Assembly: GCA_002256025.1 (NCBI GenBank)
Contig: NKIB01000529.1
Span: 1 to 32,139, forward strand
From: Asterionella formosa
Lineage: Eukaryota
Length of the DNA: 32,139 nt
Reading direction: 5' to 3'
The translations under genes and the position numbers were made by a program. Positions within the stretch are counted from its first letter, which is position 1; each line of letters begins with the position of its first letter. The notes below the pieces were generated by a model. That model had not been told where the DNA came from. It saw only the letters and a list, made by a program, of their open reading frames with translations, and ran no database searches. Below are positions 540 to 32,139 of this stretch, in pieces.

Positions 540-683
540 TGAATTTTCGTGATACTTTTTGGTGATACAATTTTATTGCTGTTGTAGAGATTGGATTTTT
601 TCGGTTCAAATCGAGTAGCCGTTGCATGATACTTTTTCAAAAGATATGAAACCAAATCGAAAATGATAAGAACAACAACCCTT
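540..683 (+). repeat. Further fragment related to the GATAC-rich element
   Basis: Several GATAC motifs; its end (aatgataagaacaacaaccct, ~662-682) resembles aatgataagaacgaccct at 234-251. Confidence 0.45.
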
Positions 684-2846: not shown

Positions 2847-2861
2847 CAGCATGCTTTTGCC

Positions 2862-3500
2862 AAGTGGGAGAGTTGAAACATTTAGAGATTCCTGATTCCA
2901 GATCAGGTTGTGGGAGCAGCTACAATATCTTTCGTCTCTAGTGACCTGATCAGGACATGTACCACAATTCACTAGATGATCAAGGACACATGGTTAAATA
3001 TCGCATGTAAAATGCCACAGTTGAGAGAGGAACTTTCACGAGAAGTTCTCTCCAACCTTTTAAATGGAATCTAGAAGGCAATCGGAAATAAAGGCCAAAT
3101 CAATAAATGATTGACAACTAGACAATTACAGATACTATGTCTGCAAAATCAAGGAACATTAAAGAAGCTAACTAGATATGATCTAGTTATGATTAACAGG
3201 ATCATCCTGTAAGCAGTCATTGATCAAACAGCATCTGGCCTAAGTTGAAATAGGTCAAGATGAGACATATGTGTATTTAGGAAGAGGATGCAGTTTATTC
3301 TCAGTTCAAGTTGGGAACACAAATGAACCTTGCCTCTGATGATCACCTCCATTTTGAAACATGCATGAGATTGGAAGTTTCAAAATTATACATTCAAATT
3401 TTACATTTACATTAAGCTCACTCTTTTATCAAAGCAACTATTAGCAAACAAAGTAAAACAAACAAATTGTGCAGAAACATTTTTCTAGCAACTTTTACTG
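2862..3500 (+). repeat. Putative polypurine tract (aagtgggagag, 2862-2872) and 3' LTR beginning TG at 2874; right boundary uncertain
   Basis: Purine tract lies 15 nt after the pol stop and is followed by TGAAAC and CpG-poor non-coding DNA. No second LTR in the window to confirm it. Confidence 0.5.
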
Positions 3501-3798
3501 CGTGAGAGCTACAGATTCGTAGCATCTACCAACTCTTCTCGGTAATTTGATGATGTCTATCCTGGTCTTTTTTGACCTGCCTTTTTCTAACAATATTCCT
3601 TGATTTGACAATGTCTGATGTTCTGGTCTTTTTCGGCCTGTCTTCTGGAAACATAAATTGTTTTACGGTTAAATCGTCATTAAGATTTATTTCCCTCCAG
3701 CAACAGTCATCTGTATGTATAATTTCTCTCATGCCATCTGTTGAGCTCACTCGTCTTCCATAAATCTCATCTCGACAGCCACTGCGACAAACTCGATC

Positions 3799-5519: not shown

Positions 5520-6125
5520 GGTACCTGGTACCTACCGGGGTACCTGGTAGTTTGGTTGTACAGATGCACTCCATTTTCCACTCTACTGCTATCAATCACA
5601 CGAGAAATATTCACCAGTACTGCAAATTGCTGACTGCTATGGCTACATATGCCATGTGAAAATGTACACAACACACAACAACAACTGGTTCGACAACTGG
5701 TCATTCATCAAGATCCAGGTAAGTAAAGCAATACGTGAAAAGGAAAGCATATTGTATTTTGCATGGAGACATGACTAAAAAGCCTGTACTAGGCGGTACC
5801 GTAGAGCGTCAAAATTTAATACATATGAATAATACGTACTAGAATGAACCGCCATGAAGGACAAGCAAAGCAAAAGGTACCAGGTACCAGGTACCTAGTA
5901 CCAGGTGCAGAGTATGCTCCTCCCAAGAGTGAGTTCGTGGAGTACATTCATTTGCCGGCCTGATCATGATACATACCGGTATGCTGTGGTCATAAATACA
6001 ACAGGTACATGAGTATATACAATGATAATAGTGCCGGTATGGTACCCTGGTACCAGCAGGAGTGGACATTTATAAAAACGAGATCATGATCAAAGTCTAT
6101 GTAGGTACCTGGTACCAGGTACCCG
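5520..6125. repeat. GGTACC(A/T)-rich low-complexity clusters upstream of the fucosyltransferase gene
   Basis: ggtacctggtacc at ~5520, ggtaccaggtaccaggtacc at 5876-5895, ggtacctggtaccaggtacc at 6104-6123. Confidence 0.8.
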
Positions 6126-7820: not shown

Positions 7821-9449
7821 TGGCTGGGTGCACGAAGACTAAAGTTTGGGTAGCCATAGTAGAGCTGGTATGTTATTTTTTAGCTTTCGGTTGGATGCAG
7901 AATCTATCATGCCATTACACTTGCTTCATTACCTCTGACAATGGTGGTGAATATCTCCATATCTTCTTTGTCTGCCACATGCACCGCTAGCTGTATCTGA
8001 CCATTTTGACCATCATAAGCCAAAAAACATCGGTGCACACGGCAAACAATGCACCAATCCGTTTATATTGACTTGTTTCAAGGCTGCCATGAGCGAACAT
8101 GCGCTTCATGATTGCTGGCTACCAGCAGACCAATTGCGGTTATACATGCTCCAGAAATACTCAATTGAGGATTCAGCACAGTTTAATTTAGCTTCGATGA
8201 TAAGGGTGGTCAACAAGGTGCTTCCTCTCATGAGTTCTGCACCAAACATTCTAGAGATTCAAGGTGGCCAACAAGTGCAAGTATACAGGCATTCCTTCCA
8301 AAATCGGAAATGTCGCTATTTCTTCTTTGTCACCTCCAAATTGAAATTCGTTCCTGTCCTCCCTTCACAGTTGAAAGCGTTATCATGGGAGCAAGATTGT
8401 GTACTGACAAGGCTTTTAGCAGGCAGTCAGAGTAAGCCATTGTCAACGAAAATTTCTGAACAAGAAATTATAGTGATGGATGATGCTATCAACAATGGCA
8501 ATAAAGATGGATTGGAACAACCAAAAAAGCGAAAGAGGGGCGGGAGCAATGAATCAGATCCAATTATAATTAGTCCTGTTGAACATCATCAGATGAAAAC
8601 AGATGCTGATGTATGGTGTAATTCTGGAGATGCTCGAAAGTTATTGTGTGTTTTGCATGAAATTCCTACAGTCATAACTGTTGAAAATTTTCGTGAAGGA
8701 TGGGAACAAGGAAGAGCGAAGGATTTGCTGCAAGTTCTTTGGGAAAGAGCATTCATTGACAGCACAAACCTAAGCAAATATGCACTTACTGGGAAGAGAG
8801 AACTCGGAATATTCAACAATGTCAACAGCTTGAGACACATAATGGGAATGTGTGCTGACTTTTTAAATGAAGAGGGAATGCTGCAATATATTGCAACCAA
8901 GATTGGCGTCATGGTCCTCCTGACACCAAAATGTCATGCTGAACTTGCAGGGGAAGGGATAGAGTACATGTGGGCTTGTTCCAAGGGTGCATACAGAAAT
9001 TTGAGCTTGAAAGAGAATAAGGGGAAGGAAAACTTCAATGCAAGTGTGGGCCATTGTTGTCTTTCAGAGCAACTCATCACAGTTCGAAGAATACGAAAGT
9101 TCGCACAGCGTGCTCGTCTGTACCTAATGGCTTACCATGCCATTGATTTTAGTCAAGTTGACCAACAGACTCAACAAGGCTATTCCAAATATGGCCCTGT
9201 TGCCTTAACACGGCTCATCAATGAGTTCAAGACACATCGATGTGCCTTTGACTTTGACTACAAGTTCATTTGGAGTGTGATGAATGATGATTGATGGTCT
9301 TGAGTTTCCTGTTGCATCAATCCTTTTACCTACTACATAGCTGTATATCGTAATATAGAAATTTCATTTAGACATTTCATTTAGACTATAAACGTCGCAT
9401 ACTAGATCTACGGTGGCTACCCAATCGAGTCCAAGCGTGCACCCAGCCA
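7821..9449 (+). mobile_element. TIR DNA transposon, IS630/Tc1/mariner-like, probably internally deleted (1629 bp)
   Basis: Imperfect ~52-bp TIRs: 7821-7872 tggctgggtgcacg-N11-ttgggtagccatagtagagctggtatg versus reverse complement of 9398-9449 tggctgggtgcacg-N11-ttgggtagccaccgtagatctagtatg. Flanks are TG (left) and TA (right). Encloses a transposase-like ORF. Confidence 0.85.
8068..9294 (+). pseudogene. Transposase-like ORF (408 codons) retaining the C-terminal part of an IS630/Tc1-type DDE domain
   Basis: TPKCHAELAGEGIEYMWACSKGAYR corresponds to the P-x-x-[HS]-x-E-L-N-P-I-E-x-x-W-x-x-x-K motif around the catalytic Glu; GWEQGRAKDLLQVLWERAFID precedes it; NLS-like PKKRKR. No recognisable upstream catalytic Asp motifs. 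Confidence 0.7.
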
Positions 9450-9514
9450 TATTGACCTGTCTCTGTCAATTTTCACTGTTTCTTACATTAATAAGCTTAC
9501 TCTAAAAACCTAGA

Positions 9515-9676
9515 TTCAATCCCATTTATCACATTTTGAGAACCTGTTCTTCACGTTCCCCTTTCGCTGATGTAAACCTAGCTAGTTTCTTGACAACATG
9601 GGCATGCTCCATTTGATTCATCAGATGATAATTGAGTCCACAATTCTCGTGACTCATAATAGACATTGATACTACA
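9515..9676 (+). repeat. Dispersed repeat, copy 1 (copy 2 at 29709-29914)
   Basis: Shared blocks ttcaatcccatt, tttgagaacctgttcttca, agctagtttcttga, atgctccatttgattcatc, gagtccacaatt, cgtgactcataatag in the same order and orientation. Confidence 0.9.
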
Positions 9677-9828
9677 TATCTACATATCATATGATATTTT
9701 TGACATACCGGTAGACTACCGGCACCCTCCACGTGCATGAATTGACATGTTCATCACTTTGATCCCCAGTGATGGATTCAAAGTACCCGATAGCTTTACC
9801 GGTACACCGGTAGTCCATCCGAGCAAAG

Positions 9829-10854
9829 ATGAACGCAACAAGGCGCTGCATGTTCGCAAGTCAAGCACTTCCATTTATGGAACCCTTGCACATATTGGGA
9901 AGCGGATCTATTGGCTTGTTGTTTGCATCGTGCATTCGAATAAGTTTCCCGAGTTATCCCATAACAATGCTAGTCAGGCAGCGGCACGAGTCTCACTTGC
10001 AGAAAGAAGGTCGCAGTAAGTCATACATGGAAGTATGTCTCATGACCCAGAAACAACCGAGAATGGTCCGTATTCCTGCTCAGATTGTTTCTGGAGCGTC
10101 CACCTCCAGCATTCGGCACCTGCTCTTGACAACCAAGGCACAGGATGCTCCAGCGGCCCTGCAATCCATCCTCCATCTACTCGACAAGAAGTCGTCAAGA
10201 ATAATTATTCTTTGCAATGGAGCTCTAGCAGTCAAGGACGAAGTTGCTCAGGTTTTGCGAAAGGCATCTCTCGAGAGAACAACTAGGATCACTTTGGCAT
10301 CAACCTATCATGGAGCATATCTACATGAGCCTGACGGGGATGATTTATATCACATAACACATGCGGGTGTCGGGAAGACTTTTGTAGAAGAAGACATTCC
10401 ATTGGCTCAACTATGGGACCAATCTAGTTTAGTGGCCACGTCGATATCTTCCAATGAAATGTCAACACTGTTATGGCAAAAGCTTGCTGCAAACTGCGTG
10501 ATTAATCCTCTAACAGCCCTCTTGGGGTGCCGGAATGGGGCCATTCTGGACCAGGAAGTGTACATCAAATTGGCGCCTTGTATTATTCAAGAGATATCGC
10601 ATGTAGCAAGTCATGTGTATGGCGGCACACAAGTTCAACTGCAGCCAGACATCTTGGCAACATTTGTCGACCAAGTCATTCAGGGCACACTCGACAACAA
10701 GTCGTCCATGTACCAAGATATTTTGAGAAAGCAACCAACAGAAATAGACTTTCTAAATGGATATATTGTGCGGCTAGGAAAGGAGGGGAACATTCCAACG
10801 CCAGCAAATCAAGAGATATGCGACAGCATATTTGCTCTTACTGCAAACAGATAA
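9829..10854 (+). CDS. panE: 2-dehydropantoate 2-reductase (ketopantoate reductase, ApbA/PanE family), intronless, 341 aa
   Basis: Rossmann motif HILGSGSIG, LLTTKA, ILCNG, LWQKLAANCVINPLTALLGCRNG, NKSSMYQD, TEIDFLNGYIV, GNIPTPAN. Short N-terminal extension may be a transit peptide. Confidence 0.95.
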   Translation: MNATRRCMFASQALPFMEPLHILGSGSIGLLFASCIRISFPSYPITMLVRQRHESHLQKEGRSKSYMEVCLMTQKQPRMVRIPAQIVSGASTSSIRHLLLTTKAQDAPAALQSILHLLDKKSSRIIILCNGALAVKDEVAQVLRKASLERTTRITLASTYHGAYLHEPDGDDLYHITHAGVGKTFVEEDIPLAQLWDQSSLVATSISSNEMSTLLWQKLAANCVINPLTALLGCRNGAILDQEVYIKLAPCIIQEISHVASHVYGGTQVQLQPDILATFVDQVIQGTLDNKSSMYQDILRKQPTEIDFLNGYIVRLGKEGNIPTPANQEICDSIFALTANR

Positions 10855-11331: not shown

Positions 11332-12980
11332 TTAAAAGCCAAATGCACCAACACCATCGCGTTGCTCCTTCAAGAATGCTTCGTAAAATTGGTAAATGAT
11401 GGTAACGGATAGCAAGATACCAGTTCCGGTACCAATGGCCCCCATAAAATCGGCAATCACCGTCAATGCCCCAATGCACATACCACCAAAGGCAGCGGCA
11501 GTAGGAATGTAACGGTTCAAGACATGAATCAACGATGAGTCGCGGTGCCCCTTCATGACCATTTGGTTGTCGCGGAGTTGCTTGGCAACATCTCGAGCTG
11601 AGGCTCCCGATACTTCAATCCATGTTTTGGAAAAGAGCGCGCATGCCGTCAAGATAAAGACCAAGTAAAAGACCGCGTGGAATGGATCGTATAGAATTTC
11701 GGCAAAAGAGGTCGGTGGAGAAATGTAATAAGCGATTCCCCCAACAGGAATCATTTGTCCAGTCGCTCCCTCGACATCTTGCCACTTGCCCAAGAGGCGC
11801 ACCAAAATGTTGGTTGGTGCGCGGTTGTACAGCAGCTGCGAGACAAAGTAGAGGTTGGACACCAATGCCGTTTGAAGGATAATGGGCATATTGGAAGTGT
11901 AGAAAAGCTTGATTGGGTAATTTCCCTGCTGTCCACGGTACTTTTGGTACTTGACAGGCAGGTCGACGCGCCATCCTTGGAAGTAAATGACAATGACAAA
12001 GATCAAGACCGTTGCCATGAGGTTGGTCAAGTTGGGAAGGTTCTGTCGGTATAGGGCTTCTCTCAGCGCGCGCACCTTGTCATTACGTGTGATGAGGAGG
12101 TGGAAGAGAGCGATGATGGCCCCTTCGAACTCCGTTCCTCTTCCAGTGTTGATGGTGGTCGGGCTAAATGCCTTCCACACAATGTTTTCACAAATGTTGG
12201 TTGCGATGAAAAGGGAAATGCCCGATCCAAGCCCGTATCCCTTCTGTAGGAGCTCATCGAGCGTCAAAACGATGAGTCCGGCGCAGAATAGCTGCGCAAT
12301 GATGAGAATAGCGTTACCCGCTCCGATGGAACCAAGATCACCGTACATTCCACTGACGACGTAAGCAATGGCTTCTCCGACAGTGATCAAGATGCCAAAC
12401 AGTTTCTGTGCCCCGGAAAAGAGTGCGCGGTCTTCCTTGACGTTGTAGTCTACTTCAATGATTCTGGACCCAGCGAGCAGCTGCATGACCAGCCCAGATG
12501 TGACGATGGGAGAGATCCCAAGCTCCATGAGAGTGCCGCGGTTGGAGGCCAAGATAACTCGCATCCAGTAAAACGGGTCAGAGGACTTCGCCGACTGAAC
12601 TCCGTAAAGGGGGATCTGGCAGCAGACCAAGAAGATGAACAGCGTAATGGTGGTCCAGAGGAGCTTCTCGCGGAACGGGATCTGGTCATGGCAGAGGGTG
12701 AGTTACCGTTATAATAGTAGCAAAGTCATTCCAACTCGAGTCAGTCCCGAGCCACGAAGTGCAATACCACAACCCTAGTAGATACGCACAACCCTAGCAA
12801 GGATCCTGCGGCTCTCGTGCACCGATCGGGCGTTGTCAACGTGGAGGTATGCACCATGATTCCTAGACTACGGCATCCACTGTCTCTTTCTCGTTCTAGT
12901 GAACAACATACCTTGCGGTCAGGGCTCGCCACCTCTGGGAGGGCGAACATCACCGGACGGATCAGATGAAGAAATCTCAT
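11332..12980 (-). CDS. SEC61A: Protein transport protein Sec61 subunit alpha, 472 aa
   Basis: Exon 1 12980-12912 ([23 protein letters not shown]), GT-AG intron 12911-12682, exon 2 12681-11332. Hallmarks [86 protein letters not shown]. Confidence 0.98.
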
Positions 12981-13022: not shown

Positions 13023-13710
13023 CACCGGGTACCGGTACCGGTATGCTGTAGTGTGAACCTGGTACCTGGTACCAGGGTCCCGATAGTTCGATATTGAATT
13101 ATAGTACCAGGTACCTGGTACCGTGTACCGGTAAGAAAGGAACCAATAAATGCCATTCAGAGTCGTGAACCGTTTGAATTGAAGACTTTCAGTACGTATG
13201 TGCTGTACATTAGCAAAAAGGCGCTTTCATGCGCATGGCAAAACATGCGGGCCTCTTAGAACATATGTATTGTAGGAATCGTACTGGTAACCGGAGTATA
13301 ACCAGTACCAGGTACTGGTACCAGCGTACCGGTACTTCAAGCTATTTTAAGGACCGGTACTGCAGTACATGTGCTATATATGTTATGTAGAAGGCATCGG
13401 TGCGCATCAGCCACCATGCCACTCGGGAGTATGCCAAGGGAGTACAGGTATGGTGCTGGTACCGGAAAAAACAATCATGCTGCTTCACCAAAATTTGAAT
13501 TCTTGTCACGAATGATGTGCTCAGAAGCTAGTAAGTAAGTATTGGCATCTGGTCTCCTGGTACCAGGTACTGTACTATTCGTAAGGGTACCTGGTACCAT
13601 GGTACCAGGTACTGGCATTACTAGGCATGTATGCCAGGACGACTGTGCGTATGTATGTACCGGCACGACACCAGATGTGGTCATACAAGTATAGTACCGG
13701 TATGTACGCT
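13023..13710. repeat. Dense GGTACC/ACCGGT/CCWGG palindrome-rich region between divergent SEC61A and CCCH genes
   Basis: For example ggtaccggtaccggt (13028-13042), cctggtacctggtaccagg, gtaccaggtacctggtacc, ggtacctggtaccatggtaccaggtac (~13586-13612). Confidence 0.85.
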
Positions 13711-16964: not shown

Positions 16965-17095
16965 ACCGGTACTCAGGGTATGGTACCAGGTACCAGGTAC
17001 CCGAGCTGGCCCTCGTAGGCACTACCGGAGTATTTAAAAGGATTTACTACACAAGCAGCCATTTTGTGTTTCTAACATTTGGTGTACCGGTAGGC
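16965..17095. repeat. GGTACC(A/T) cluster at the border between genic and CpG-poor DNA
   Basis: tggtaccaggtaccaggtacc at 16981-17001, with accggt motifs on either side. Confidence 0.75.
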
Positions 17096-17802
17096 TAGAC
17101 GAAAAAGGCAATAGAAAAATCATTTCAAAAAGAATCCTAAATTGTTTTTGTGTTTAAATAGCTAAAAAGAATATAGTTTGATAATGCCAATCGAGCGATG
17201 CGAAATGAGGGGTCAATCTGTTACATCATTTCAGCTGAATGTTTTCTTCAGCTGAAATGGTATGAGCATGTCAAATTGTCTTTGTTCTTTAAATTGAATT
17301 AGCTCTTCGGTATATATAAAGTTCTGATGCAGGCTACATGATTCATCTTATGTAATTTATATTTCACCCAAAACCACTTCCCTCTCTCAAAACTTAGATT
17401 TATTTAGATACGATGATGAGCAAGGATGAGTGAGTTAGCAATAGCAATCTGTTCAATGCTTACTTGCAGCCCAATGTAGCTAATTGAAGTGAATCTTTGA
17501 TAGAAGTTGATGCACAACCAAATCTATTGATTGTTCGCAGTCATTCATCTTGCACTTAAACCAGAAAAGCTCCTCTGATTCGAAATGAGTTCTTTGAAGA
17601 CAAATCACAATAAAGACAGAAATAATGAAGATTATGTGTTCCGTGAACTTTCATACAGTTCTTCATCTTCATCTAATGATGGCAAAGCCACTGTCAGCAG
17701 TTATGGTGCATGTAGAATGAGAGACTCCTTTTGCATGCATGACAACGCTATAGCTTTTGGGATACATAACGGAAATGCAACAACAGGAACAACTCCAATT
17801 AC

Positions 17803-18120
17803 GAAAACTGAAACAAAGGGTGCAAAGAAGGACACAACAGGAACGATAAGTGTGAATGTGCAAACTGGAACAACGACTACAAAGAATGAAAATAAGAAAT
17901 CAGGAATGACTCCAAATGTTGAAGCCAAAACAATGACTGCAAAAAGGATACAACAGGAGCAATGATTTCAAATGTACAAACTGGAACAACGAGGACTGCA
18001 AAGAAGGAAACAACATGACCAATGAGTTCAAATACGCAAACCAGAACAACGACTGCAAGGAAGGACACAACAAATCAATTAATGCAAATATGCAAACCAG
18101 AACAATGAATGCAACAACAG
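17803..18120 (+). repeat. Degenerate ~57-bp tandem repeat (~5.5 copies) within a frameshifted Thr/Lys-rich ORF relic
   Basis: Units start at about 17803, 17861, 17921, 17977, 18037 and 18093; approximate consensus caaactggaacaacgactgcaaagaaggacacaacagga...aaatgtg, translating as QTGTTTAKKDTTG...NV. Confidence 0.75.
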
Positions 18121-19439: not shown

Positions 19440-20070
19440 TGAGCCTTGCATGTCACCATAGTGACCCAAAACTGAGATGTCCCACAAGGGCCTTCTCCTT
19501 TTCGGAGCGGCTAAACAAAGTCTAAAACAATAACTCATGAGAATATATTTAAAGGAGCAAAGGACAAGGAGTGTGTGGTTAATCGAATTTGTAAATTTGT
19601 TTAGACATAGTTGCTGTTGCATCAAAGCATGTTGCTGCAGTGATTCGAAATGAGACATGCCACAATGGTCTTCTCCTTTTCGGGGCGCCTACAATTCATC
19701 TACAATGATAACTCTAGCAACTAAGATATAGTAAACACAGCAAAGGATGAGGAGATGTGGTAGATCGAATTTATAAAGTTCAATAATGATAGCTGTTGCA
19801 TATATTAGCATTCATTGCATGTCGCCATGATACACTCGAAACTGGTATGTACCACAATGGTCTTCTTCATTTTGGAGTGTCCACAAATTGTCTTCAATGA
19901 TAACTCTAGCAAGTAAGATAGAGTAAATGCAGCAAACAAGGAAGAGGAGCTATGATTGATCAAATTTATGAAGTTCTACAGAAAAAGCTGTTGACCCAAA
20001 TATTAGCATTCATCGCATGTCACCGTAGTCAGTCGAAATGAGAAGTGCCGCCCACTATGAACTTCTCTAA
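19440..20070. repeat. Degenerate tandem repeat, unit ~180-200 bp, ~3.3 copies
   Basis: Anchor ccac(a/t)a.g..cttc at 19482, 19660, 19852 and 20052. The last two full units share caatgataactctagcaa.taagata, tattagcattcat and gcatgtc. Confidence 0.8.
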
Positions 20071-20609: not shown

Positions 20610-22913
20610 CTACAAGTCTAAATTAATTCTTTCCTCGTCAAAGATGCTACTCCACACTGAAGTCAACGACGAAACGGCAGTATCTTGATCTGCCACGGAT
20701 TCTAAAAGTGAGCCTTTGAATTTGATCAATTTGAGGTCCTCTAGATCATTCAAAGCAGCACCGACATTGATATCGATAAACTTATCAACGGCCAGAGCAT
20801 TGTTGACACCAACATAACCCTGCTTTGTAACCTGGTCCCGAGTTAACGGCCCACCAACACCGCCAGATGTCCCGTTATATTGTTTTGTTCGGCTGAGCAA
20901 CCATGAATGCACAAGGGCAGCCCGAACAGCACGTTGTGACCCAGCTTCACCTGTTATGTATTTCAAGGCCCCAGCATTACGGTTAGCAATCTTGGAAGTC
21001 AAAAATTTCTTCACCAGTAGGTCGTATCGGGCTAATTTATTGGAATATCGAATGATTGTTCGAAAGATCCACAAGCCAAGCGAGATGAAAGCAATCAAAT
21101 CAAGACGTGGGTTGTCAAATTTAAAGGAGAACGAGATGAGAATTAATGTTGCAACGCTGATAAAATCGTTGAGAAGAGCGTCGGCGGGCCTGAAAACAAG
21201 CTTAGTCTTAGGAAGAACAGCAGGAAGATTTGCCATCGGAACACCATTAAATGCTCGGATCTCAAGGGGAAGAGGATCTGGTTCAGGTACGAGTATTGGT
21301 CGCTCAGGTAGTACCTTGTCCACATCGAGAACCTCCGCCAAATCATAAAAAAACCGAGGAGGGACCAATTTTTTAGGTGATCGTTTTTTCTTTGCAGTTG
21401 GTCGCCAAACCACTACAACTTCCTCGAAGGTCGGTTCCACAAGCTCTGATTTGGAAAAGAATCGCTTGGCGAACTTTGCTCTGCCTTCCTTAGTGAGAAC
21501 ATCAACAATACTACTTATACTCACCCGCTCCAAAAGAGTAGTTGGTAACAGCTGAGTGCTTCGTCGATGCTCAGAATCGTATTGACAGGTAAAGTCACCT
21601 CGATTCAGTGCTTCGTAAATGTCATGATTCACTCGTTGCTCCTCGTCAATTTGGTGAATGCTGGCGTTGAGTACAGTGGGATCATCCAATGTTTTGTTTT
21701 TCAATTCACAAATGAGAAAGGGCGTTAACTCATTATGGAGATCGAGTGATCCAACCAATTTGACCTGCCTTCCTCCATAGCGAGCAAGTTTAAAGTACAT
21801 GTTCTCGGTCCTTAAACTAACAAAATCATCGTGAGACTCCTCCTCAGTTGAGTTTTGCCAATTTACCAGGGATGCAACAGGGGGAACCATCGCCTTAATG
21901 ACTGCCATTCTTGCACCTTTTGTAACACTATGTATGCCAATTACTTCATGGTTCTCGTTCTCAGTGGAATTCTTCCACCCAACGACCAATGTTGAAACAG
22001 GAGTAATCACAGCACCCATAACATTGATTAACGTGCTTCGTGCAACTTTCATAACGGTGTTGATTCCATTAAGGATGTTCTTCTCGAAAACACCCACTTG
22101 TGTTATGGCTGCAGCAACTGATCGTGACACAAGACTCGCTTGCAGGTAGTCAATTTTGGGAAGGAGCAATCTCCCAGTAGTGACTTCTGAGGAGTATCCG
22201 CGTCTATAGACCAAAACTCTACCACCAAATAAAGCATCTTCAGTGTCGTTTTTGTATGAGCGTTCTGGATAAAACTCGTCAAGTATCCCAGGATCCAGAT
22301 CAGTGAGGTCTGGATCAATCGAAAGGCGCAGGAGGTACCCTACATTTAAGGCGTCGCATAAATCTAAGTCTCGTTGCGACAAGAGCTCGAACCCAGCATC
22401 TTCCAGAGAATTTCTCAAAACATTCACTAGTTTTTTCTCTTCTGTTTTGCAAAATGAAACAATGGAATTCCGATCCATGTAGGCCAAGTGTCTCGTTTCT
22501 ATACGTGATATTGCGTGATAAATAGCGTCCAGCTTCTCCAAAATATGAGGCGGTTCGTTGAGAGAGGGAGGTAGAATCTGTTTGGAGCAAGGAATTCTCG
22601 CGTCTGAAAGTGCCACAAGTCGACAGACTGTACTTTCGAACCCCAACTCGCTCGCCGCAGCGCGAAGTGTGTTGCTGTCGACCACCGTGCTAACCCCGTT
22701 GTTGCCAATGGTTTCGTTGTTCTTGGTCTCTCCGACGTGCTGCAAGTGCTCTTTCCTTATTCCTAGATCAGATTCATGCTTTTGCATCAATCGCCTAGTT
22801 TGAAAAATATATCGCTGAATTGGAGCGACATGGTGAAGCGACAGTCGAAAGGCAAACGATGCCGGTAGCAGCATCATCCGGGTGAAAATTTTCAAATTCA
22901 TCTTGTCGTCCAT
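20610..22913 (-). CDS. DUF3754 / TMEM143-like membrane protein, probably plastid-targeted, 767 aa
   Basis: AGFELLSQRDLDL, YLLRLSIDPD, RVLVYRRGY, VEPTFEEVVVVWR, LEIRAFNGVPMANLPAVLPKTK followed by two TM helices and ANRNAGAL. N-terminal MMLLPASFA|F resembles a diatom ASAFAP-type cleavage site. Confidence 0.8.
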   Translation of the reverse strand: MDDKMNLKIFTRMMLLPASFAFRLSLHHVAPIQRYIFQTRRLMQKHESDLGIRKEHLQHVGETKNNETIGNNGVSTVVDSNTLRAAASELGFESTVCRLVALSDARIPCSKQILPPSLNEPPHILEKLDAIYHAISRIETRHLAYMDRNSIVSFCKTEEKKLVNVLRNSLEDAGFELLSQRDLDLCDALNVGYLLRLSIDPDLTDLDPGILDEFYPERSYKNDTEDALFGGRVLVYRRGYSSEVTTGRLLLPKIDYLQASLVSRSVAAAITQVGVFEKNILNGINTVMKVARSTLINVMGAVITPVSTLVVGWKNSTENENHEVIGIHSVTKGARMAVIKAMVPPVASLVNWQNSTEEESHDDFVSLRTENMYFKLARYGGRQVKLVGSLDLHNELTPFLICELKNKTLDDPTVLNASIHQIDEEQRVNHDIYEALNRGDFTCQYDSEHRRSTQLLPTTLLERVSISSIVDVLTKEGRAKFAKRFFSKSELVEPTFEEVVVVWRPTAKKKRSPKKLVPPRFFYDLAEVLDVDKVLPERPILVPEPDPLPLEIRAFNGVPMANLPAVLPKTKLVFRPADALLNDFISVATLILISFSFKFDNPRLDLIAFISLGLWIFRTIIRYSNKLARYDLLVKKFLTSKIANRNAGALKYITGEAGSQRAVRAALVHSWLLSRTKQYNGTSGGVGGPLTRDQVTKQGYVGVNNALAVDKFIDINVGAALNDLEDLKLIKFKGSLLESVADQDTAVSSLTSVWSSIFDEERINLDL

Positions 22914-23179
22914 ATGTCGAGCCAGAATGCATCCAATTTCACTCTAATGGGCTCTCAAGTTTGAATGGAACAAGCTTAAAAACAGCAAATTATAATCCAG
23001 GAACGAAGTAGAATTGATAAAGAACAGAAGGAGAATATTTCAGATTGCATTCTACAAATGTGTACGATGATAGTAACCGGCATAACGAGCGATTGTGATG
23101 CAAATCAGGGGTGAAAGCAAAACAAACGAACAAAAAAACACAAGCATGTAGACTTTTTAAAATAAGAAGGTGCAGTAAT

Positions 23180-23410
23180 TGGGACCAGGTACCTGGTACC
23201 GCACTTGGTATCCCTGGCAGAAAAGACAGTTCTTACTACGAGAGAAATTTAGCTAAATTCCTGGTACATACCCCCAGTTGAGAGTGCCTGGGTACCAGCT
23301 ACCTGGTACCTGGTACCAGCTATGTAGGGAAGGTCATCAAAATATACCGTACCAGGGTGCTACAATACATACCGATACATTTTTTCAGGTTACCATACCA
23401 GGGTACCACC
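23180..23410. repeat. GGTACC(A/T) clusters between the divergent DUF3754 and cyclin genes
   Basis: ccaggtacctggtacc (23185-23200), ggtaccagctacctggtacctggtacc (23291-23317), gggtacc (23401). Confidence 0.75.
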
Positions 23411-24397
23411 ATGGGAGCAGAGCACCTTGACCTGAACACATTCCTGTCAGAAAACACAGTATGCAGCATTCTTTCTGGGCGAACGACACCAACATTCACA
23501 GCGCGCCCTCTTCCACTCTTGGTCGTCCCCCCGGAGGGTCCACCGTGCTCACTTCCACACTGCTGCAGTTTTCTAAGTTTCAATTTCGTAATTTCCAAAC
23601 GATGCAGTCTTCAAGAATTTTTGAAATCTCTGAATTTTTAATGACTGTGACACTGTTTAGGGAGTAAACTGCCATATACTGTTGTGTCATGCCGAGTCCC
23701 CATGAAATTTGATTAACAGAAAGCTGAGTTCGAAGATTAATGATTTCGAATGATGTGCATCAAGATAGAATCCTTTCCGAATTGGGAAGGTTTTTCAATC
23801 AAGATTGGATTTTGGGCTTCTGTTTGCTGAATACTTAGTATGTGTCCGGAACCCCACGATTGTAGAATGATTGTGTATGTGTAGATGTGTTCGTCCACCA
23901 GTTTCATACATATACGTCGCTAAGAAGGCTCGACCACATGCAGCGAAGCTCAGAAATAGAAAAAGGACTTTCCAACTTGGACTAAATAAATAAATAGTGA
24001 GGAAGCGGGTTTGGTGGCTCTTGAATTTTCATTATTTATTGCGGTCCTATGAAGGTACGTGTTTAAGGATGCCGGTAACGAGCTTGAGATATTGCCGCGA
24101 TCAGCTGCTTTACCGGTAGCTAAACTCAACAGATACCTCGTCGCTTCTGGGAATGAATGGATAGTTAACTTCCGTTGCATATGGACGGCGCCGGCATGAC
24201 CTTGGTAGGCTCGTGAGAGAGAACAAAACTCCAGAGTCAGTTTGAATGTTATTTTCAGTTCTAAATATATATTTCGGGACTCATCGCAAAATTTGCGGAC
24301 GACGTCCAGGCGATGTGCCTCCAAGCGAAAGCTTTACCAAGTTTTCACTTGTCACTTCATAAAAGTTTCGAAGCCAGTTACAGCTCGACCCTCGACG

Positions 24398-25991
24398 ATG
24401 ATGTCCTTTGATCGTTCCACACAGTCGAAATCATGGGTTTTCACAGAGAAGAACCTCCGGCGATGCCGTGAGAAGGCAACGAATGAACGCTTAGTCTCAA
24501 GGAACCAAAATGGCGAAGTACGAGTTCGAAACTTTGCTTCGGGCTTTCGATCGTCAGGGGCTTTCTCGATTCAGAATCCTCTGCCTGTTCAACTGGAAAG
24601 CAAGGAAATTCAATCAAATCTATTGTTATCGTCTCAAGAACAAGATACTTTGGTTCGCTTCCACGCTAATCAGATTTCTATGTTAGTAGGCCCTGACGCT
24701 ATTCTCTCAACCCTGGTTCGATCAGAAACTGTTTATGCGACGTCCATAATGATTTTTCGTCGATTCTTTCTCTCCAACTCAGTTCTAGACTTCTCCCCGA
24801 GGAAGATGGCAACAGCTTCGTGCTTTCTGGCTTCAAAACTCGAAGAGAGTCGACTCGATGTAAGTTTAGATCTTCTCAATATCTTGTCGGAAGTTTTGCC
24901 GCACTTTTCGTGATTTTTGAGCGTTCTTGTGTTGCTGGCTGGCGCGTTTGTGACTATTTGTCGATTTATTTATGTTGATTCGATCGATCAGAACTTCATA
25001 TACGTAGGATTTTATTATCCTTAAGTAAGCTGACGTCAACGGATCGATGTGCTCGCTGTTGTCCAGTTCAACTGGATTCGAGTCTTGCAAATATAATCGA
25101 ATGTACATCCTAACATGCTCGTCACTCCAAATTTTCTCTCTTAAGATTCGTTCGCTCTCAAATGCTACAGCAGTGATTTATGATAAGATTAAGAATGCCC
25201 CCATGTGCCGTCGAGAATTAGGCTTCGTTTCGGTCGCAGAAATTGAAGATGGCGAGCGAGATTTGATGGAGGGCATAAACTATGAAATGCGCTTTCATCA
25301 TCCTCATTCTGCTATTTCTGTATTGTCGTCTAAGATCAACGCCTTTATTGTTGATCAGGAGCGCGTTGAAGCAGCCAAATTGAGTGGCACTTCCTTTTAC
25401 CATACATCATCTCCTCGCAATATGTCGGAAAGTGGCACAAATGTTGAAGAAATTATTGAGAATGCCATGATGATTGCTTCCAACGCCTTGGTATTTTCGG
25501 ATGCGCCATTCCTGTTCCCCCCAGGTCAGATCGCCTTTGCTACAATTGCCATGGCTATGCGAGTCAATGATCCCTATTCCCCCTCAAAAGGCTTAATTCA
25601 TCAGACCCTTTTTGCATTTTTGCGTCATCGATTTGGGAGCAAAAACGACGACGAACTTAATAATTTTGAGGATGAAGTGTCCTATATCATTCAGCATCTA
25701 ATGGATAGTCCTGTCATGGACCTGAAGTTGCTTTCCTTGTCTAGACCTTCTGAGGAACTCGATGGTATTATTGCCGAACAAGCAGAACGACTGGGGCGGG
25801 TCTTTCATAAGGTATCAATTATTCACAACACTGCAGCACCCCTTACGTCGGATCCCATCGGAGATTTTCGAAAGAGAAAACACAGCATAAAGTTTAAGGT
25901 TTCTCTCTCGCCTCCTGGTCATCCCATTTGTACGGAAAAGGTTGCCAGGATCACCCCCACCAAGCGCCGGAGGATTTCCATTCCGAGTTAA
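24398..25991 (+). CDS. Cyclin H-like protein, 435 aa
   Basis: Exons 24398-24859 and 25146-25991 (GTAAGT...TTAAG intron) are in frame. N-terminal STQSKSWVF, cyclin box IFRRFFLSNSVLDFSPRKMATASCFLASKLEE, INYEMRFHHP, SDAPFLFPPGQIAFA match the cyclin H/Ccl1 pattern. Confidence 0.85.
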
Positions 25992-26419
25992 CCCTTCTCT
26001 GCCTTACGCTTCCATTGGGTGGGTTTCATAGAAACAACGTTGTCCACTTTCTAGAATGTTAGATTTTTCATTCAAAAAGACTTGAAATCTTGACCGATTC
26101 AACGAAGTAAGCAAGCCGCACAATAAATGTCATGGCCAGTCCGTGGGTGCTATGTCAACACTGCCTCTGCACCTGTCATCATATTGTCTCCTTTTTCATG
26201 AGCCTATGATTTTGTATGTGGTACCGGTACTTCTTAAGGTAAACGGATCCCACACTATTCACCATAGCTAGTGTGCCATATAAAAGCTGGACTATACTTT
26301 CGAAAATAAAGTAAGTCCTCCATTTTTAACTTCTTACACATCGATACTGTACTGACAGCCAAAGTAACTATATATAGAAATGTAAGAATTCACAAAATTA
26401 ATACAGTAGTGCAGCAGTT

Positions 26420-26810
26420 GACTACCGGTATTTACATACCGCCCGGTGGGCAGACTTGACTACCGGTATGTACCATTTTTGCCCTGTGGTGTGTGACGTA
26501 ACAAAGATCACTTACGACTTGTTTTGTGAATTTTGGTCCGAAGGAGTACCAGGGACCAGGAAAATCCGGCAAACACGTTTTTAATTTATAAAAAAATACA
26601 GCTAAATATCTCCACATCCGGTCCTTCGTTCAGGTGTAAAATGCAGCAGGTACTGTACATACGAACCGATTATCGACATACCGGTACTGGTACCCGGTAC
26701 CTTAGTCATACGTATGTCCAATCAAGGAATGATTTTTGCATTTCTCACACGAACCTCGTTGCTGGTATGGAGACTGCATTACCAGTACCGGTACCTGGTA
26801 CCAGGTCTTG
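26420..26810. repeat. GGTACC/ACCGGT clusters upstream of the ubiquitin-like gene
   Basis: ttgactaccggtat occurs twice (26418 and 26456); accggtactggtacccggtacc (~26680-26701); gtaccggtacctggtaccagg (~26785-26805). Confidence 0.75.
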
Positions 26811-27066
26811 TAGCTTTGTTCATCATCCACCCACTCAGCAAAAAGGTGAGGGAATGTTCGACGATGAGGACTGTCACTAGGTATACATAAGCAACAATAT
26901 TGTTATTCTGTATACCTGATTAATAACGCAAAACTGGTTCCAATTGAGATTCGTCAACGTAACTAAAAGATTCCAATTTTCAACGAAGTCGAGCAACTCA
27001 TGTTTCACTTTTGGACTTTATTTTGGTTCCGTTGACAAACTATTCGAGCGCCATTTCAGAAACACC

Positions 27067-27468
27067 ATGACGGCCGTGACAGTAGTCTCCTCTTTGACAA
27101 CCATTTCGGGTTGTGGAACGGTGTATCTAGGTGATGTGAACGTCACTGATCATTCAGTTGGCGAAATCAAGGAGATGATAGAGACTGCAACATCCATTTC
27201 CATTCCGAATCAAAAGTTGTGGTGGAGAGGCTACATTTTGGACAACAATTTTCTTCCTTTAATCGAGGCATGTGTCGGTTAGTTCCTGCTGTTTCAATTG
27301 CTTGTCGATTGGTGACATTCAAAGCCATTTCATTTAGTCCTAACCAAAAACGATCTGCTCCTATCAACAGGAGTCAATGATGGAGAAAAAATTTCTGCTG
27401 AGTTGGATGTGCTTATTATATTTATGACTGTGGATCAGCCAAAGACTGAGCTATCCTCCAGTTTGTAA
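27067..27468 (+). CDS. Small ubiquitin-like (beta-grasp) protein, 102 aa
   Basis: Exons 27067-27277 and 27371-27468 (GTTAGT...CAG intron). SVGEIKEMIETATSISIPNQKLWWRGYILD matches the UBL pattern TV.ELK..I....GIP...Q.L...G..L.D. No C-terminal GG. Confidence 0.65.
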
Positions 27469-29060
27469 TGATGGAGGATTTCCCGCCTTCAAAGTTCCAC
27501 TTTTTCCAAATGTTTCAATGATTATTATTCACTTTTGTGGTTCAAGGACAAAGTCGGTCTGCAAATGATTGCACTATTATTCCATATTGAATCCTTTTAC
27601 AAGAGATCGATGTAGAAAAATATGTTCCACACTCACCATCTTCAGGATTGTCTAATCACATTTGGTTAAATCACTATTGCTCACAAGGAAGAAAGCAACA
27701 AAGGTGATGGCAACATTGGAATGCCAACAAGGAGTACAAGAATGATCCCAAAGAACAATGAATTTTTCCCATTCTGTTTCCAATGGTCCTTGTTATATTC
27801 ATCATTGAAATAAGTCTTTCTGTCCACCTCAACCTTCAGCAGTTTGGTTATGACCATGGTACAGCACTTTCATCATGGTTCTATAGTTTGGAACAAGTGC
27901 ATTGGACCAAGCAGTTGGAGTATGTTCATAATTAGAATGTCTGTCAAAATGGTCATTGCATCACCACATCATAGCAACAGCCAGCCCTCCGCTGGTTTGG
28001 TACTTCCTTAGGTTGCAAACAATTGCAGCAATTATTAAAAGTTCTCCAGGTCCATTTTTGACTCCTACAATTTTCTCCAGCTCAATTGCCCAAATGTGTG
28101 CAATCACTTAAGCTATCCAGATCTATGAAAGTTTAAAATTTGCAACTATATTTGCTTTTCACTTTTGGACATCTCAAGCAAAATGCAGATGCATGAGGAC
28201 CCACTTTTTCAAACCATCTATTCTCACCACACATACAAATGTAAGAAATAATGGAAGAGAGACAGCAACCTGCCTTCAATTCTGGATTGTGCAACCATGC
28301 AAGTGGCAGTGATAGGAAGGAAGAAAGCAATAGTATGCTGTTATGATGATAGGACCTGTTAAATATCTGGTGACATGGTCAATGTAAATAAAGGTAATAG
28401 CTGTAGAAAGGATATGGAATGACTGTTCTTCTACTCCTGTTATAATTATGAAAGTGATGTGTTTTGTTTGATTTCCTGCAAATATTTGAGCAGCCAGCTT
28501 GCTTTTGGCGGTATATATGTATACCCTATGGGGGAATGACTTAGTGGTTAGCAATCTTCTGAGATAGCGGATTTGGTTCCTGCATTCTACAGATGCTTTG
28601 TTTATGAATTCCCTTAGGTTCTAGGTGTTGAGGCAGAAAACAAGCAGATCCAAGGCCCTCTTGGGCCCCTTGGGGGCCAAGAGTGACTTCACAACCTCCA
28701 CTATAGGCAAGGTCTTTAATGCTACTTGTGTACAATAAAATTTACTTAACAATTTTTGTATGTTCATTTATTTTTGATTAATTTATATACAAGGGATTGC
28801 TTTAATTAGTGACTGAGAGTTTAGATTCATGTCTATGTGACTCATACAAATGCATATTTTCCAGTAATTTGATGCATCCTCATGTTGAAAACTGATATGT
28901 TTTCTATGTAATCCATCCTAAAAATAAGCTGCTCAGCACTTGAATTACGGCAAATTGCAGAAAAAATTCAACCTGAGGGAGTACCAGGAAGTACTAGTCA
29001 GTAAGTAGTTATGAGTGATGGCTGGTTTTCATATCAAGCTACCACCAGTACCTGTAGATT

Positions 29061-29105
29061 TAGCTGGGTGCATCATGAAACAACATTGGGTAGCCACCAT
29101 AGCTA
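29061..29105 (+). mobile_element. Solitary TIR of the same family as the 7821-9449 element, facing right
   Basis: tagctgggtgca-N13-ttgggtagccaccatag versus tggctgggtgcacg-N11-ttgggtagccaccgtag: same two blocks, same spacing. Confidence 0.75.
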
Positions 29106-29708
29106 TCATCACAACAAAATAATTTGAACATAAGTAAAATGTTCTATATAAATAACATTCATATGAATAAATTTTTTGTATACATGCATCCGCATCATGA
29201 TGCATTGTCCTCTGGTGATGCTTGCACTGGTGCAGCACATGGTACCAGCATTGTTGCGATCCTTTATCTAAGGGAAGAGTTGAAATTAGATAGAGGAATA
29301 TCCAATTGGCTGACCCCGCTTGCATAGAAGAATGTCGGACTTGTGTGAAAAATTCATCAACTTTGCGTATGTCAGTAAAAAGTGAATTGCTTGGCTGATT
29401 GCTGATTGGTGTTGTTGATAGCGACATCCACTAACCCTCCAATTTCATCCTTGAACCTCTGACAGAAAGCTGCGTTTGGTATTCTGTACAGAGGGCATTG
29501 TTGACATACAATCTTTGAGATGTGGAAGGGTGATATTTTTCTGAGCCAATATCGGTGGTGGGCAACTGGTGATACTCAGGCAGGTGGCCAGCAAGCAAGG
29601 AAAATTTTTGGGGATCCAGGATCTCCTTCATTATAGAAGTGTAGTAATCTATTGACTAACGAAGAGTCAACAAAAAAAAGGGGGGGGTCAGAGTGAGGAG
29701 GGAGTAGT

Positions 29709-29914
29709 TTCAATCCCATTCATCACGCTTTGAGAACCTGTTCTTCATGTTCCCTATTTGTTGATGCAAACTGTCTTCTCATTGATATGAAACATCAATC
29801 TTGTTACCAGTAGCTAGTTTCTTGAGGACATGGGAATGCTCCATTTGATTCATCCGTAGACAAGATAATCGAGTCCACAATTTTCGTGACTCATAATAGC
29901 CATTGATAATAACA
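29709..29914 (+). repeat. Dispersed repeat, copy 2 (about 40 bp longer internally than 9515-9676)
   Basis: Same ordered blocks as 9515-9676; extra segment at ~29772-29810. Confidence 0.9.
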
Positions 29915-30050
29915 GGTACTCCTACCAGGTAGCCTACCGGTACCATTATGATTACCGCTATATTCTTGACGACATAATGGTGGTTTACCGGCAGTAAATG
30001 TACCGGTAGTTTCTGGTCCGAGGTAACGGTACTGGTACCAGGGTACCTGG
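29915..30050. repeat. GGTACC/ACCGGT cluster abutting the dioxygenase-like frame
   Basis: taccggtacc (~29935-29944), gtaccggtag, gtactggtaccagggtacctgg (~30029-30050). Confidence 0.75.
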
Positions 30051-31249
30051 CACATGGACAACGGAAGAGTAAGGAACAACTCTTACTGGTTAGATACTTT
30101 GATCATGATGACAAAGGCAAGGAGACATGGCTAGATGACAATGTCCTGGATTTTGTTCTCAACAAATTCTATGTGGTCCTAGAGTCTGGCTTGTTTAACA
30201 AAACATCATTTGGAACTTCAAGGAAATTTCGGAATCATATAGGACCAGCGATGATTTTATGGAAGACTCACTTTCCTCGAGATTTTAGACTACATCAGAA
30301 ACACAACAATATGCCGCCAAATGCAGCAGAGATAGAAGACTTCATATGTCTCATCACTGATTCCTCATTACGGTTAATCAAAACAGTTCTGAGAACAGAT
30401 AACTTCCTTTATGTTATCGACGGAATTGAACAAGAACGCGTGTTTTTCCTCAATCTATCTTTCCTTCCAGATGAGTTTTTTGGAAGAGAAGAAAAAGACA
30501 ATCCATTTTTACATGTGGCAAACTCTTTTTGTACTTCCGAGAAAATCTATAACCCTCCTATTCGTTTGTTGAAACAAACATTCAAAACAACTGCAAAATA
30601 CAAAGAACTTGCAAATACTATAGAAGGAAAAGCCATACAAGTGTTTCCTTTCAAGAATTGTACTGACAGCTTAAAATATTCAAAGCTGGATCTGCCAAAT
30701 GTAAAACCATTTTGGCACATGATAAAGACCTTGTTACTACCAGGTTACAATGATGTCTCCAGCAATAGCGACAGAGTTCTACCACACACTGCCACTATAT
30801 TGTTCATCGATTCTGGAAAGAATGGCTACCCAAAACCTTAGAAACCATACCAAGATTATACACCAACAGAATGCGAAAGGGAAACACCTATGCCTTGGGG
30901 AATGATAATGTCGTTGTCTTTAGGAGGGAACTGCTTAAATGTATGGGATAACTGTGCAGATGAGAAACATGCAATACATTTGTCCATACCATTCAAATTC
31001 ATCTTTCTCATGCATGGAGATATAGCTAGTCCATGGAGGAGCTTTGGATAATAGTAAAAAAATTGTGCTCTACGGATTCATTCTCATTTATCGCCAGCTA
31101 TAAAACAAAGAAATGGACACAGACCAACTGTCGCCGAACTGAAACAACAAGATGACAACATACACACTGATGGATCAATATGTGGTCGTAACCAGAAATT
31201 TTCGTCATTCTTATTGCAATATGACGGAACAGGGTGGTCTAATTTATAA
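30050..31249 (+). pseudogene. Fe(II)/2-oxoglutarate dioxygenase-like (PhyH-type DSBH) pseudogene
   Basis: The frame is open from ~30050 to a TAG at 30839-30841 and continues *KPYQDY...MPWGMIMSLSLGGNCLNVW...HLSIPFKFIFLMHGDI, then after frameshifts VHGGALDNSKK and NCALRIHSHLSP...GWSNL* (31249). Restoring TAG to CAG and TAC to CAC gives Q-K-P-H-Q-D, a distal His (GDxVHGG) and an Arg (LRIH). Confidence 0.6.
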
Positions 31250-31428
31250 TCTAATTTCACAATTTATGTAATTGAATTTTTTTATGATGTTGTATTCCAT
31301 ATGTATTTATTTAGTGGGGTGGTCGACAATTAAGCAAAAATGTTAGAAGGCCTAACGCATTTTTCATTCATAGACGAAGTCATCAAAAATTGCCAATTGG
31401 ATCTCGCCTTGCAACAGGCGAGATAATG

Positions 31429-32139
31429 TCACCTAGCTAGTTGCTGATTTTTAGTAGTCATACTTAGTAATATACCCAAGTCATTCACAGGTGAGAAGGG
31501 GCTTGAGCTGGGAATATCATCTGACAATGGACTTGATGATGACATGAATCTACTCTTCTTTGAGTAATACTCATCCACAATGTTTTCACGTTTTCTGGTT
31601 CTCTGAGAAGACAGACTGTCAATCTGATTTGTAATAGATTCCAGTTTTCCATCTAAAGTATTAAGCTTTGTTTGGATATTTGCGAACATTATATGTTCCA
31701 ATGGTTATCTAGCTTGTTGTTGCAGAAGACCTTTCATCCGATGACGAGTGCATGCAGCAGATTGACTCAGACCAAACAATGCATTTCCCAAAATTGAATT
31801 GTTAATCAAATCTTCTGATAAAGCCAGTTTTGCTGCTTCTACTGATGCGTCCTCGACTTTCAGCTGGCCTCTGCTTCCAATGGAGCAATCAATTGACATA
31901 TCAGAAGAACGACTGAAACTTCGTTCCTCTGCAACCAATTTTCTAGCTGATGCACGGCCTGCTGATTCTTTCTTGCCATTCTCAAAGACACAATCCTTTG
32001 TTAGCAAGAGAATAGACTTGAACTCATCTCTAGCAAATGGTCCAAACAATTTGAATCCAATCCAGCCATGAAAATAATAATCCACAGGCATCCCAACATC
32101 ATCATTCAATGCCACAGCAGCACCCAAGATTTCCTCCTC
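31429..32139 (-). pseudogene. Uncharacterised, probably TE-associated ORF with an in-frame stop, truncated by the window edge
   Basis: ORFs 31705-32127 and 31429-31701 share one frame, separated by a single TAA. Contains MPVDYYFHGWIGFKLFGPF, a basic GRASARK segment, a coiled-coil-like LNTLDGKLESITNQIDSL and a Ser-rich tail; CpG-poor context. Confidence 0.55.

Follow-up and report, generated by a model that had tools for sequence, protein, structure and literature searches.

The right end of a 32,139-nt stretch of Asterionella formosa DNA (contig NKIB01000529.1 of assembly GCA_002256025.1, positions 1 to 32,139, forward strand; hereafter the window) carries two broken, convergent genes behind a series of shorter segments. 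An original prediction had read the interval 29061-32139 as a candidate large transposon, with a terminal inverted repeat (TIR) at its left and a dioxygenase-like gene and further open reading frames (ORFs) as cargo. All of the features that it listed were present: the TIR, the minus-strand relic, the pseudogene, the convergent ORF, the repeat R1 with its GTAC cluster within 29705-30056, and the low CpG content, with observed-to-expected ratios of 0.27 at 28001-30000 and 0.55 at 30001-32000 compared to 0.47-1.11 in the remainder of the window. However, these features do not make a single TIR-bounded transposon; 29131-29705 is single-copy and its neighbours are repeated. The interval 29063-32139 is to be annotated as four unrelated repeat or unique segments, not as one element. 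It is probably a mosaic of unrelated pieces, in which the DNA from 30057 onward is a dead copy of a multi-gene DNA transposon with a probable dioxygenase gene. The features of the interval are listed below.

29063-29112 (+): solitary, truncated left TIR end of the same family as the element at 7823-9447, recognized by motif match and three-end alignment
29170-29631 (-): relic of an open frame, 154 codons long and interrupted by one stop, recognized by translation
29705-29911 (+): short high-copy repeat R1, with a second copy at 9511-9674
29918-30056 (strand not assigned): GGTACC-rich cluster after R1, abutting the truncated element, recognized by its sequence and by similarity to GTAC clusters elsewhere in the window
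30057-31249 (+): 5'-truncated pseudogene of a 433-amino-acid (433-aa) protein with an HxD...H...R pattern, beginning near codon 41-42 and reaching the natural stop
30839-30841: lesion in this pseudogene, TAG
30848: lesion in this pseudogene, His-to-Tyr in the HxD motif
after 31022: lesion in this pseudogene, insertion of 4 nt
after 31059: lesion in this pseudogene, deletion of 1 nt
RGD motif of this pseudogene: lesion, His replacing Arg
31364-32139 (-): C-terminal 60% or so of the gene for a 418-aa protein (the 'FKLFGPF' protein, P0037 family), running off the window

Thirteen related loci (L001-L013), obtained from a scan of metagenome contigs, were compared with the window by blastn. Ten of them extend to the left edge, and all 10 began to match the window at exactly 30057; the 365-3964 nt that they carry further upstream matched nothing in the 32-kb window. 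In addition, contigs from four runs, of which X1 and X2 are independent, were placed on 26000-32139 at a likeness of at least 85%. In X1, 59 contigs had a loose end before 30057, and the consensus of these ends was the N-terminal coding sequence of the family. To the right, the match was unbroken over both genes, from 30057 to 32081 in L011 and from 30859 to 32139 in L013, in which it continued past the window end. Since the matches start at 30057 and run unbroken rightward, the dioxygenase-like gene and the FKLFGPF gene form one unit, of which the window copy is cut at the 5' side. The pairing of these two ORFs in the original prediction was thus borne out. What lies at 30057-32139, and continues past the window end, is one mutated copy of a two-gene unit that is highly repeated and here lacks its 5' part.

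The summed contig depth in X1, which is not a copy number, was approximately 800-3,000 over 26000-28049, 1,026 over 29280-29484, approximately 170,000-180,000 over 29690-30099, and 140,000-1,080,000 over 30100-32139. The same contrast was repeated in X2 (34 vs 650-3,700). In total, 11,623 contigs were placed in X1, across all identity bands, and dozens of them carried variant letters at single positions. The depth contrast, the number of contigs and the 59 loose ends together indicate a high-copy family. Copies occurred in at least four different truncation or deletion forms. Those of L007 and L008 end at 30325, those of L004, L006, and L012 lack 30903-31660, L001 is a rearranged copy, and further internal joints were seen in the X1 contigs. 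In L007 (634-2846) and L008 (1147-1573), the cut at 30325 is the same junction in both contigs, and the unrelated sequence beyond it carries a long minus-strand open frame.

Between copies, the synonymous divergence (dS) was 0.04-0.06 and the ratio of nonsynonymous to synonymous divergence (dN/dS) was 0.44-0.68, suggesting that the family is young and weakly constrained. When 30986-31534 was compared with L009 and L013, most insertions and deletions were short tandem duplications, many of them CTAG, TAG, TAGC, or CTA beside an existing CTAG or TAG; these may be footprints left by the excision of an element with a 3-4 bp target, or products of replication slippage. Polyadenylated RNA contigs of X8, which comes from the sample of X1, covered 30313-31903 and hence both genes. 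Since each of these contigs differed from the window at 11-24 positions, the RNA derives from other copies; as the data are assembled contigs, transcript starts, strand, and level are not readable from them.

The two proteins of the repeated unit

The plus-strand dioxygenase-like pseudogene foreseen in the original prediction is one broken frame at 30050-31249. Compared with the intact 433-aa proteins, it lacks the first 41 codons or so, and the +4/-1 frameshift pair (31023-31059) puts the distal His out of frame. In X1 and X2, the other copies nearly all have the intact letter at 30839 and 30848 (C at both) and at 31705. When read through its stop, the frame was 92% identical to P0001, a database protein of 371 aa whose cluster has 82 members, 40 of which were examined. 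The database holds intact 433-aa proteins of three different sequences (P0050, P0052, and P0056), and many members of the family there are frameshifted fragments. An exhaustive phmmer search gave 32 relatives at E <=0.001, several of them full-length, with 29-41% identity.

The aligned proteins share the motifs T...Q..PHxDY, PW, G..L..W, IP....L.RGD.VH(G/A)G, and R(I/L)H.(Y/F). H49, D51, T35, Q46, and P64 were invariant in the 15 aligned sequences, and the His of VH(G/A)G and the Arg of R(I/L)H were present in every row reaching them. In the numbering of the L009 ORF, the distal His lies 63 residues after the HxD His, and the Arg 14 residues further. The HxD...H triad and the basic residue that Fe(II)/2-oxoglutarate dioxygenases use for iron and 2-oxoglutarate are thus present in the family; the window copy has lost the first His and has the second frameshifted. 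A GD dipeptide shortly before the distal His occurs in the C-terminal motif of PhyH, and the GD-x-x-H-G...R of the 433-aa protein resembles it. Feature matches in the protein atlas, in which scores below 0.9 are leads only, were to 2OG-FeII_Oxy_3, HalD, and PhyH clusters at 0.89. Among the 15 members, P0029 alone gave a PhyH match over the HxD region (E 0.023, 15.4 bits vs a cut-off of 22). Because the order and spacing of HxD, His (+63), and Arg (+14) are those of the Fe(II)/2-oxoglutarate oxygenases, we lean towards reading the 433-aa protein as a putative member of this group. It shares this order and spacing with PhyH and its kin, but differs from them in that no Pfam cut-off is reached and that some 250 N-terminal residues are without a known counterpart.

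Other searches were negative. No ORF of 29063-32139 had a Pfam match. PHROG gave four single-member matches at E 0.026-0.3, none of them a dioxygenase, and hhalign against one phage PiuC gave a probability of 0.1, that is, no signal. A profile search for a deeper alignment yielded 5 proteins out of 8000 candidates. In none of the 15 members did hmmscan report Tet_JBP at E up to 10; the HMMER filters drop most matches above 0.1, so that a very remote relation is possible.

The convergent minus-strand ORF is likewise broken and runs off the edge, as had been described. In the window, it carries a TAA at 31705-31707 and small insertions and deletions near its 3' end; most copies read G at 31705, giving Tyr in place of the stop, and L013 holds an intact 418-aa ORF. 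Its homologues are P0038-P0041, of which P0040 (42% identity over 94% of the query) and P0041 (49% over 46%) are diverged. Conserved blocks lie in the N-terminal and central parts of the protein, which also has an acidic linker and, at its C terminus, a coiled coil; a PDB search returned coiled-coil noise only. It is a probable DNA-binding or partner protein of the element.

Fuller copies and the segments before 30057

The upstream sequence lost from the window copy is best seen in L004, in which the parts lie as follows.

L004 from 1230: GGTACC-rich stretch
L004, after the GGTACC-rich stretch: (CAA)n run
L004 1516-2715: frameshifted fragments of a PIF/Harbinger transposase
L004 3201-3663: 114-bp tandem repeats
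L004 3838-4900: dioxygenase-like gene
L004 4760-5445: convergent gene

The C-terminal piece of the transposase, L004:2446-2715, matched DDE_Tnp_4 (PF13359) with an E value of 1.7e-10 and 41.2 bits vs a cut-off of 24.8, over profile positions 97-158 of 158. This feature of PIF/Harbinger occurs in related loci only, the window copy being truncated before the transposase gene. L001, which belongs to the subgroup closer to the window, has a piece of the transposase region beside the dioxygenase gene, in a rearranged copy. L002 from 189 and L004 from 1230 were 97% identical over 3.5 kb, and the flanks before these points were unrelated. From this comparison, L002 and L004 are read as two insertions of one element, with GTACTCTGGTACCAGGTACCAGG... 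as its putative left terminus. An inverted copy of the specific part of this terminus, GGGACCACACTGTC, was absent from all 13 loci. On the other side, L012 alone extends past the right side of the unit. The homologues of the dioxygenase-like gene are therefore multi-copy and, in L004, linked to a transposase, rather than single-copy host genes; the proposed linkage to the TIR motif of 29063 was found in 0 of the 13 loci. The notion that several genes, one of them for an enzyme, travel in a DNA transposon is partly borne out, in that two genes lie in one repeated unit with a linked transposase; the TIR at 29063 does not belong to it, and the linked transposase is of the PIF/Harbinger type, not IS630/Tc1. 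The tandem repeats at L004 3201-3663, between the transposase remnant and the dioxygenase-like gene, comprise about four units of 114 bp; the repeat also occurs in L002, L003, L005, L006, L010, and L011, in a shorter form in L008, and its unit number varies between loci.

Before 30057, the window has the repeat R1 and a GGTACC-rich cluster. R1 at 29705-29911 was 85-92% identical to 9511-9674 in three blocks; its summed depth was approximately 180,000 vs a baseline of approximately 1,000 in X1, and its loose ends in X2 lay at 29706 and 29908. The motif GGTACCWGGTACC (<=1 mismatch) occurred 22 times in the window vs 0.01 expected. Its clusters, at 5520, 5876-5902, 6104-6123, 13061-13122, 13559-13613, 16982-17001, 23181-23317, 26689-26802, and 29918-30056, all fall between host genes. 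GGTACC-rich sequence of this kind also forms the left terminus that L002 and L004 show for the dioxygenase element, and a Harbinger-related family may have left the clusters as termini or footprints. L012 has GGTACC-rich inverted repeats of 30 nt, 230 nt apart (2067-2097 / 2327-2363), which resemble a miniature element.

The stretch 29131-29705 was single-copy between repeated neighbours. The predicted minus-strand relic proved real, and its region stood at baseline depth in an exact contig of X1 (29165-29581) and a contig of X2 (29131-29734); the relic had no Pfam match. Kinship of the relic with the 447-codon frame of the TIR element described below was considered and rejected, as there was no similarity.

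The two-block motif GCTGGGTGCA-N13-TTGGGTAGCCA was found at 29063-29096 (+), 7823-7856 (+), and 9414-9447 (-), that is, 3 matches vs 0 in 100 shuffles. In the alignment of the three ends, the blocks are conserved, the 13-nt spacer is hypervariable, and about 16 weaker positions follow inward, after which the similarity stops. The reference of the family is a complete element.

7823-9447 (+): complete TIR element of 1,625 bp with a TIR at each end
7951-9291: single uninterrupted frame of 447 codons inside this element

This element shares with Tc1/mariner-IS630 the small size (1.6 kb), the TIRs, and one frame (of some 400-447 codons). It differs in that the frame had no Pfam match at E up to 1, and thus no Pfam transposase domain, and no PDB match, and in that a TA duplication was not evident in the flanks at 7823 and 9447. 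The inward-facing TIR at 29063 is genuine, but its IS630/Tc1-like label was not supported. A full partner TIR was absent from the window, in agreement with the original prediction. The inner 11-mer alone recurs inverted at 30823-30833, without the outer block. It encodes N-G-Y-P-K of the plus-strand ORF and is present at the homologous coding place of L009; being conserved coding sequence, it was rejected as a partner TIR and read as a coincidence. The X1 depth of the bin holding the TIR (29075-29279) was 64,000, and contigs of single-copy depth resumed by 29131-29165, to the right of the TIR end.

The window as a whole is eukaryotic and rich in genes, and the metagenome runs containing it are labelled algae, freshwater, or lake. 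Besides the interval described, the following were noted.

9814-10851: long frame, ketopantoate reductase
11335-12702: long frame, Sec61/SecY
20613-22943: long frame, DUF3754 protein
24209-25988: weak cyclin-domain matches, below cut-off

Several further repeats were observed. At 28050-28254, the summed depth in X1 was approximately 119,000 vs a baseline of approximately 1,000, and the contigs broke off sharply in loose ends at 28056, 28156, and 28208; this marks a further very abundant small repeat. Tandem repeats at 17787-18114 (a 57-60-bp unit, six times) and 19482-19946 (a unit of about 180-190 bp, three times) sit in low-GC, CpG-poor DNA. The window start has a 116-nt inverted repeat (40-155 / 309-424, 92% complementary, 153 nt apart), and two more inverted matches of 82 and 39 nt (1058-1256 vs 28301-28499) join both window ends.

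Explanations of the interval

We propose that the interval begins with a truncated TIR end that stands alone and comes from a family of small TIR elements (29063-29112), followed by single-copy DNA with a decayed open frame (29131-29705), a short repeat of high copy number that ends in a GGTACC cluster (29705-30056), and, from 30057 past the window end, a 5'-truncated copy, killed by mutations, of a multi-gene DNA transposon that is young and very abundant. The full element would have the order GGTACC-rich terminus, (CAA)n, PIF/Harbinger DDE transposase, 114-bp repeats, 433-aa gene, and convergent 418-aa gene. It would move by Harbinger-type cut-and-paste, with the 418-aa protein replacing the DNA-binding partner that Harbinger transposases require. 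The 433-aa protein would hold iron through H-x-D and the later His, and 2-oxoglutarate through the Arg 14 residues on. Opposing host silencing is one possible benefit of such a protein to the element. The most far-reaching form of this proposal, a Harbinger-type algal transposon whose own dioxygenase, of an undescribed family, acts on DNA or chromatin marks against silencing as an independent, non-TET counterpart of the fungal TET/JBP carriers, is speculative and unlikely.

Several results speak against the proposal. The window itself has no transposase, every transposase copy seen was frameshifted and none intact, and the Harbinger link comes from metagenome contigs that are about 90% identical by blastn. 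The left terminus is defined by two loci only, and neither a right terminus nor a target-site duplication was found in the related loci. Summed contig depth, as said, does not count copies, and a dN/dS of 0.44-0.68 amounts to weak constraint. Concerning the 433-aa protein, none of the 15 members reached a Pfam cut-off at E up to 10, and sequence and profile searches of the PDB gave no match for the family. AlphaFold2 models of full-length P0027 (13 rows) and of the C-terminal half of the L009 protein (15 rows) had pLDDT scores of 37.1 and 41.6. In the latter model, which is unreliable, strands predominate and the motifs fall on consecutive ones; a Foldseek search with it gave nothing below E 0.6, and the matches are meaningless. 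Concerning the 418-aa protein, Pfam gave no match for P0037 and P0038 at E up to 1 and chance-level matches only for P0040 and P0041, and a Myb/SANT domain was not found by Pfam in any of these four.

The large transposon of the original prediction, starting at 29063, carrying the relic, the dioxygenase-like ORF, and the FKLFGPF ORF as cargo, and having its partner TIR past the window end, has on its side a genuine, inward-facing TIR, parts that are all CpG-poor, and the exact inner 11-mer inverted at 30823. However, the two-block motif and its outer block were absent from all 13 related loci, four of which (L004, L006, L012, and L013) continue for 0.7-1.5 kb beyond the window end. Because the motif occurs in none of them, the TIR at 29063 is not the end of the two-gene unit. 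Moreover, all copies diverge from the window at 30057, the depths of 29280-29484 and 30100-32139 are two to three orders of magnitude apart, and the 11-mer is coding sequence conserved in L009. One transposon spanning 29063-32139 is also unlikely because its middle would not be single-copy. This model is therefore largely refuted, and we give it almost no credence. Hardly more credible is an ordinary host gene pair conserved in related algae, with the window holding a decayed duplicate. Both proteins do have diverged homologues (30-49% identity) in other assemblies, and many of the metagenome loci are mutually 97-99% identical and could be one locus sampled repeatedly. Nevertheless, a single locus fits poorly with the 11,623 X1 contigs over all identity bands and their dozens of variant letters, with the truncation and deletion forms and the many frameshifted database members, and with a linked transposase and a terminus shared between unrelated flanks.

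A less remote alternative, although still an improbable one, is that the two-gene module is mobile by other means and the upstream transposase is an older, unrelated insertion. The module would then be a segmental duplication or a Crypton-like element, with the 418-aa protein derived from a tyrosine-recombinase or Ndc10-like protein. Indeed, no intact transposase was seen, and all atlas matches of P0037 were to Ndc10/NDC10_II, GCR1_C, DUF3435, DUF3504, and Phage_integrase clusters (0.81-0.87). Ndc10/NDC10_II, DUF3435, and Phage_integrase are Crypton-related domains. GCR1_C and DUF3504 have been tied to Cryptons as well, and stramenopile Cryptons are without TIRs and may carry an extra gene (Kojima & Jurka 2011, PMC3212892). 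However, these atlas scores stay below 0.9 and are leads only, the Pfam and PDB results given above offer no recombinase, and the five-sequence alignment has no invariant His, so that the R-H-R-Y tetrad is not kept. Furthermore, the terminus, the transposase, and the dioxygenase-like gene recur together as one block in two insertions whose flanks differ.

Comparison with known systems

Canonical PIF/Harbinger elements have the DDE_Tnp_4 transposase in common with the present element. They have two genes, a Myb/SANT partner, TIRs, and a 3-bp target-site duplication, whereas the present element has three genes and a partner without Myb/SANT. A second gene besides the transposase is needed by PIF/Harbinger (PMC12730594), and Harbinger elements have been reported in the diatom Thalassiosira pseudonana (PMC2806351). 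CryptonS elements of oomycetes and diatoms (PMC3212892) share with the present element a stramenopile host, no need of TIRs, an accessory gene in some, and the atlas leads of the 418-aa protein. The present element differs from them in having no Pfam recombinase domain, no conserved catalytic His, and a linked DDE transposase.

At the level of titles and abstracts, no algal transposon with a dioxygenase was found in the literature, and dioxygenase-carrying DNA transposons have so far been described only in fungi (Kojima 2025, PMC12730594). The same paper cites oomycete HarbingerS elements with a SET-domain gene. It describes the rust-fungal Harbinger-superfamily ('PHISTA') elements as having, besides the transposase, a TET/JBP dioxygenase and a third protein that lacks Myb/SANT, and as making TA duplications. 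PHISTA and the present element have in common a PIF/Harbinger-type DDE transposase, a dioxygenase or dioxygenase-like gene, and a third protein without Myb/SANT. They differ in host (a fungus vs a freshwater alga), in the enzyme (TET/JBP vs a 433-aa protein that reaches no Pfam cut-off and so has no TET/JBP match), and at the termini (TA duplications vs a GGTACC-rich left terminus).

Transposons that bring along enzymes for modifying chromatin or DNA illustrate the ways in which mobile DNA counters host silencing. The present family is abundant and transcribed, and intact copies of its genes exist; if the proposed reading is true, it would represent an enzyme family without a described member, and its interest would rise sharply with a demonstrated enzyme activity and silencing role. 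The closest analogues of the present element are the fungal Harbinger-type transposons carrying TET/JBP dioxygenases, and an element of Harbinger type with three genes, one of them for a dioxygenase-like protein that is unclassified, would carry this theme over to stramenopile algae.

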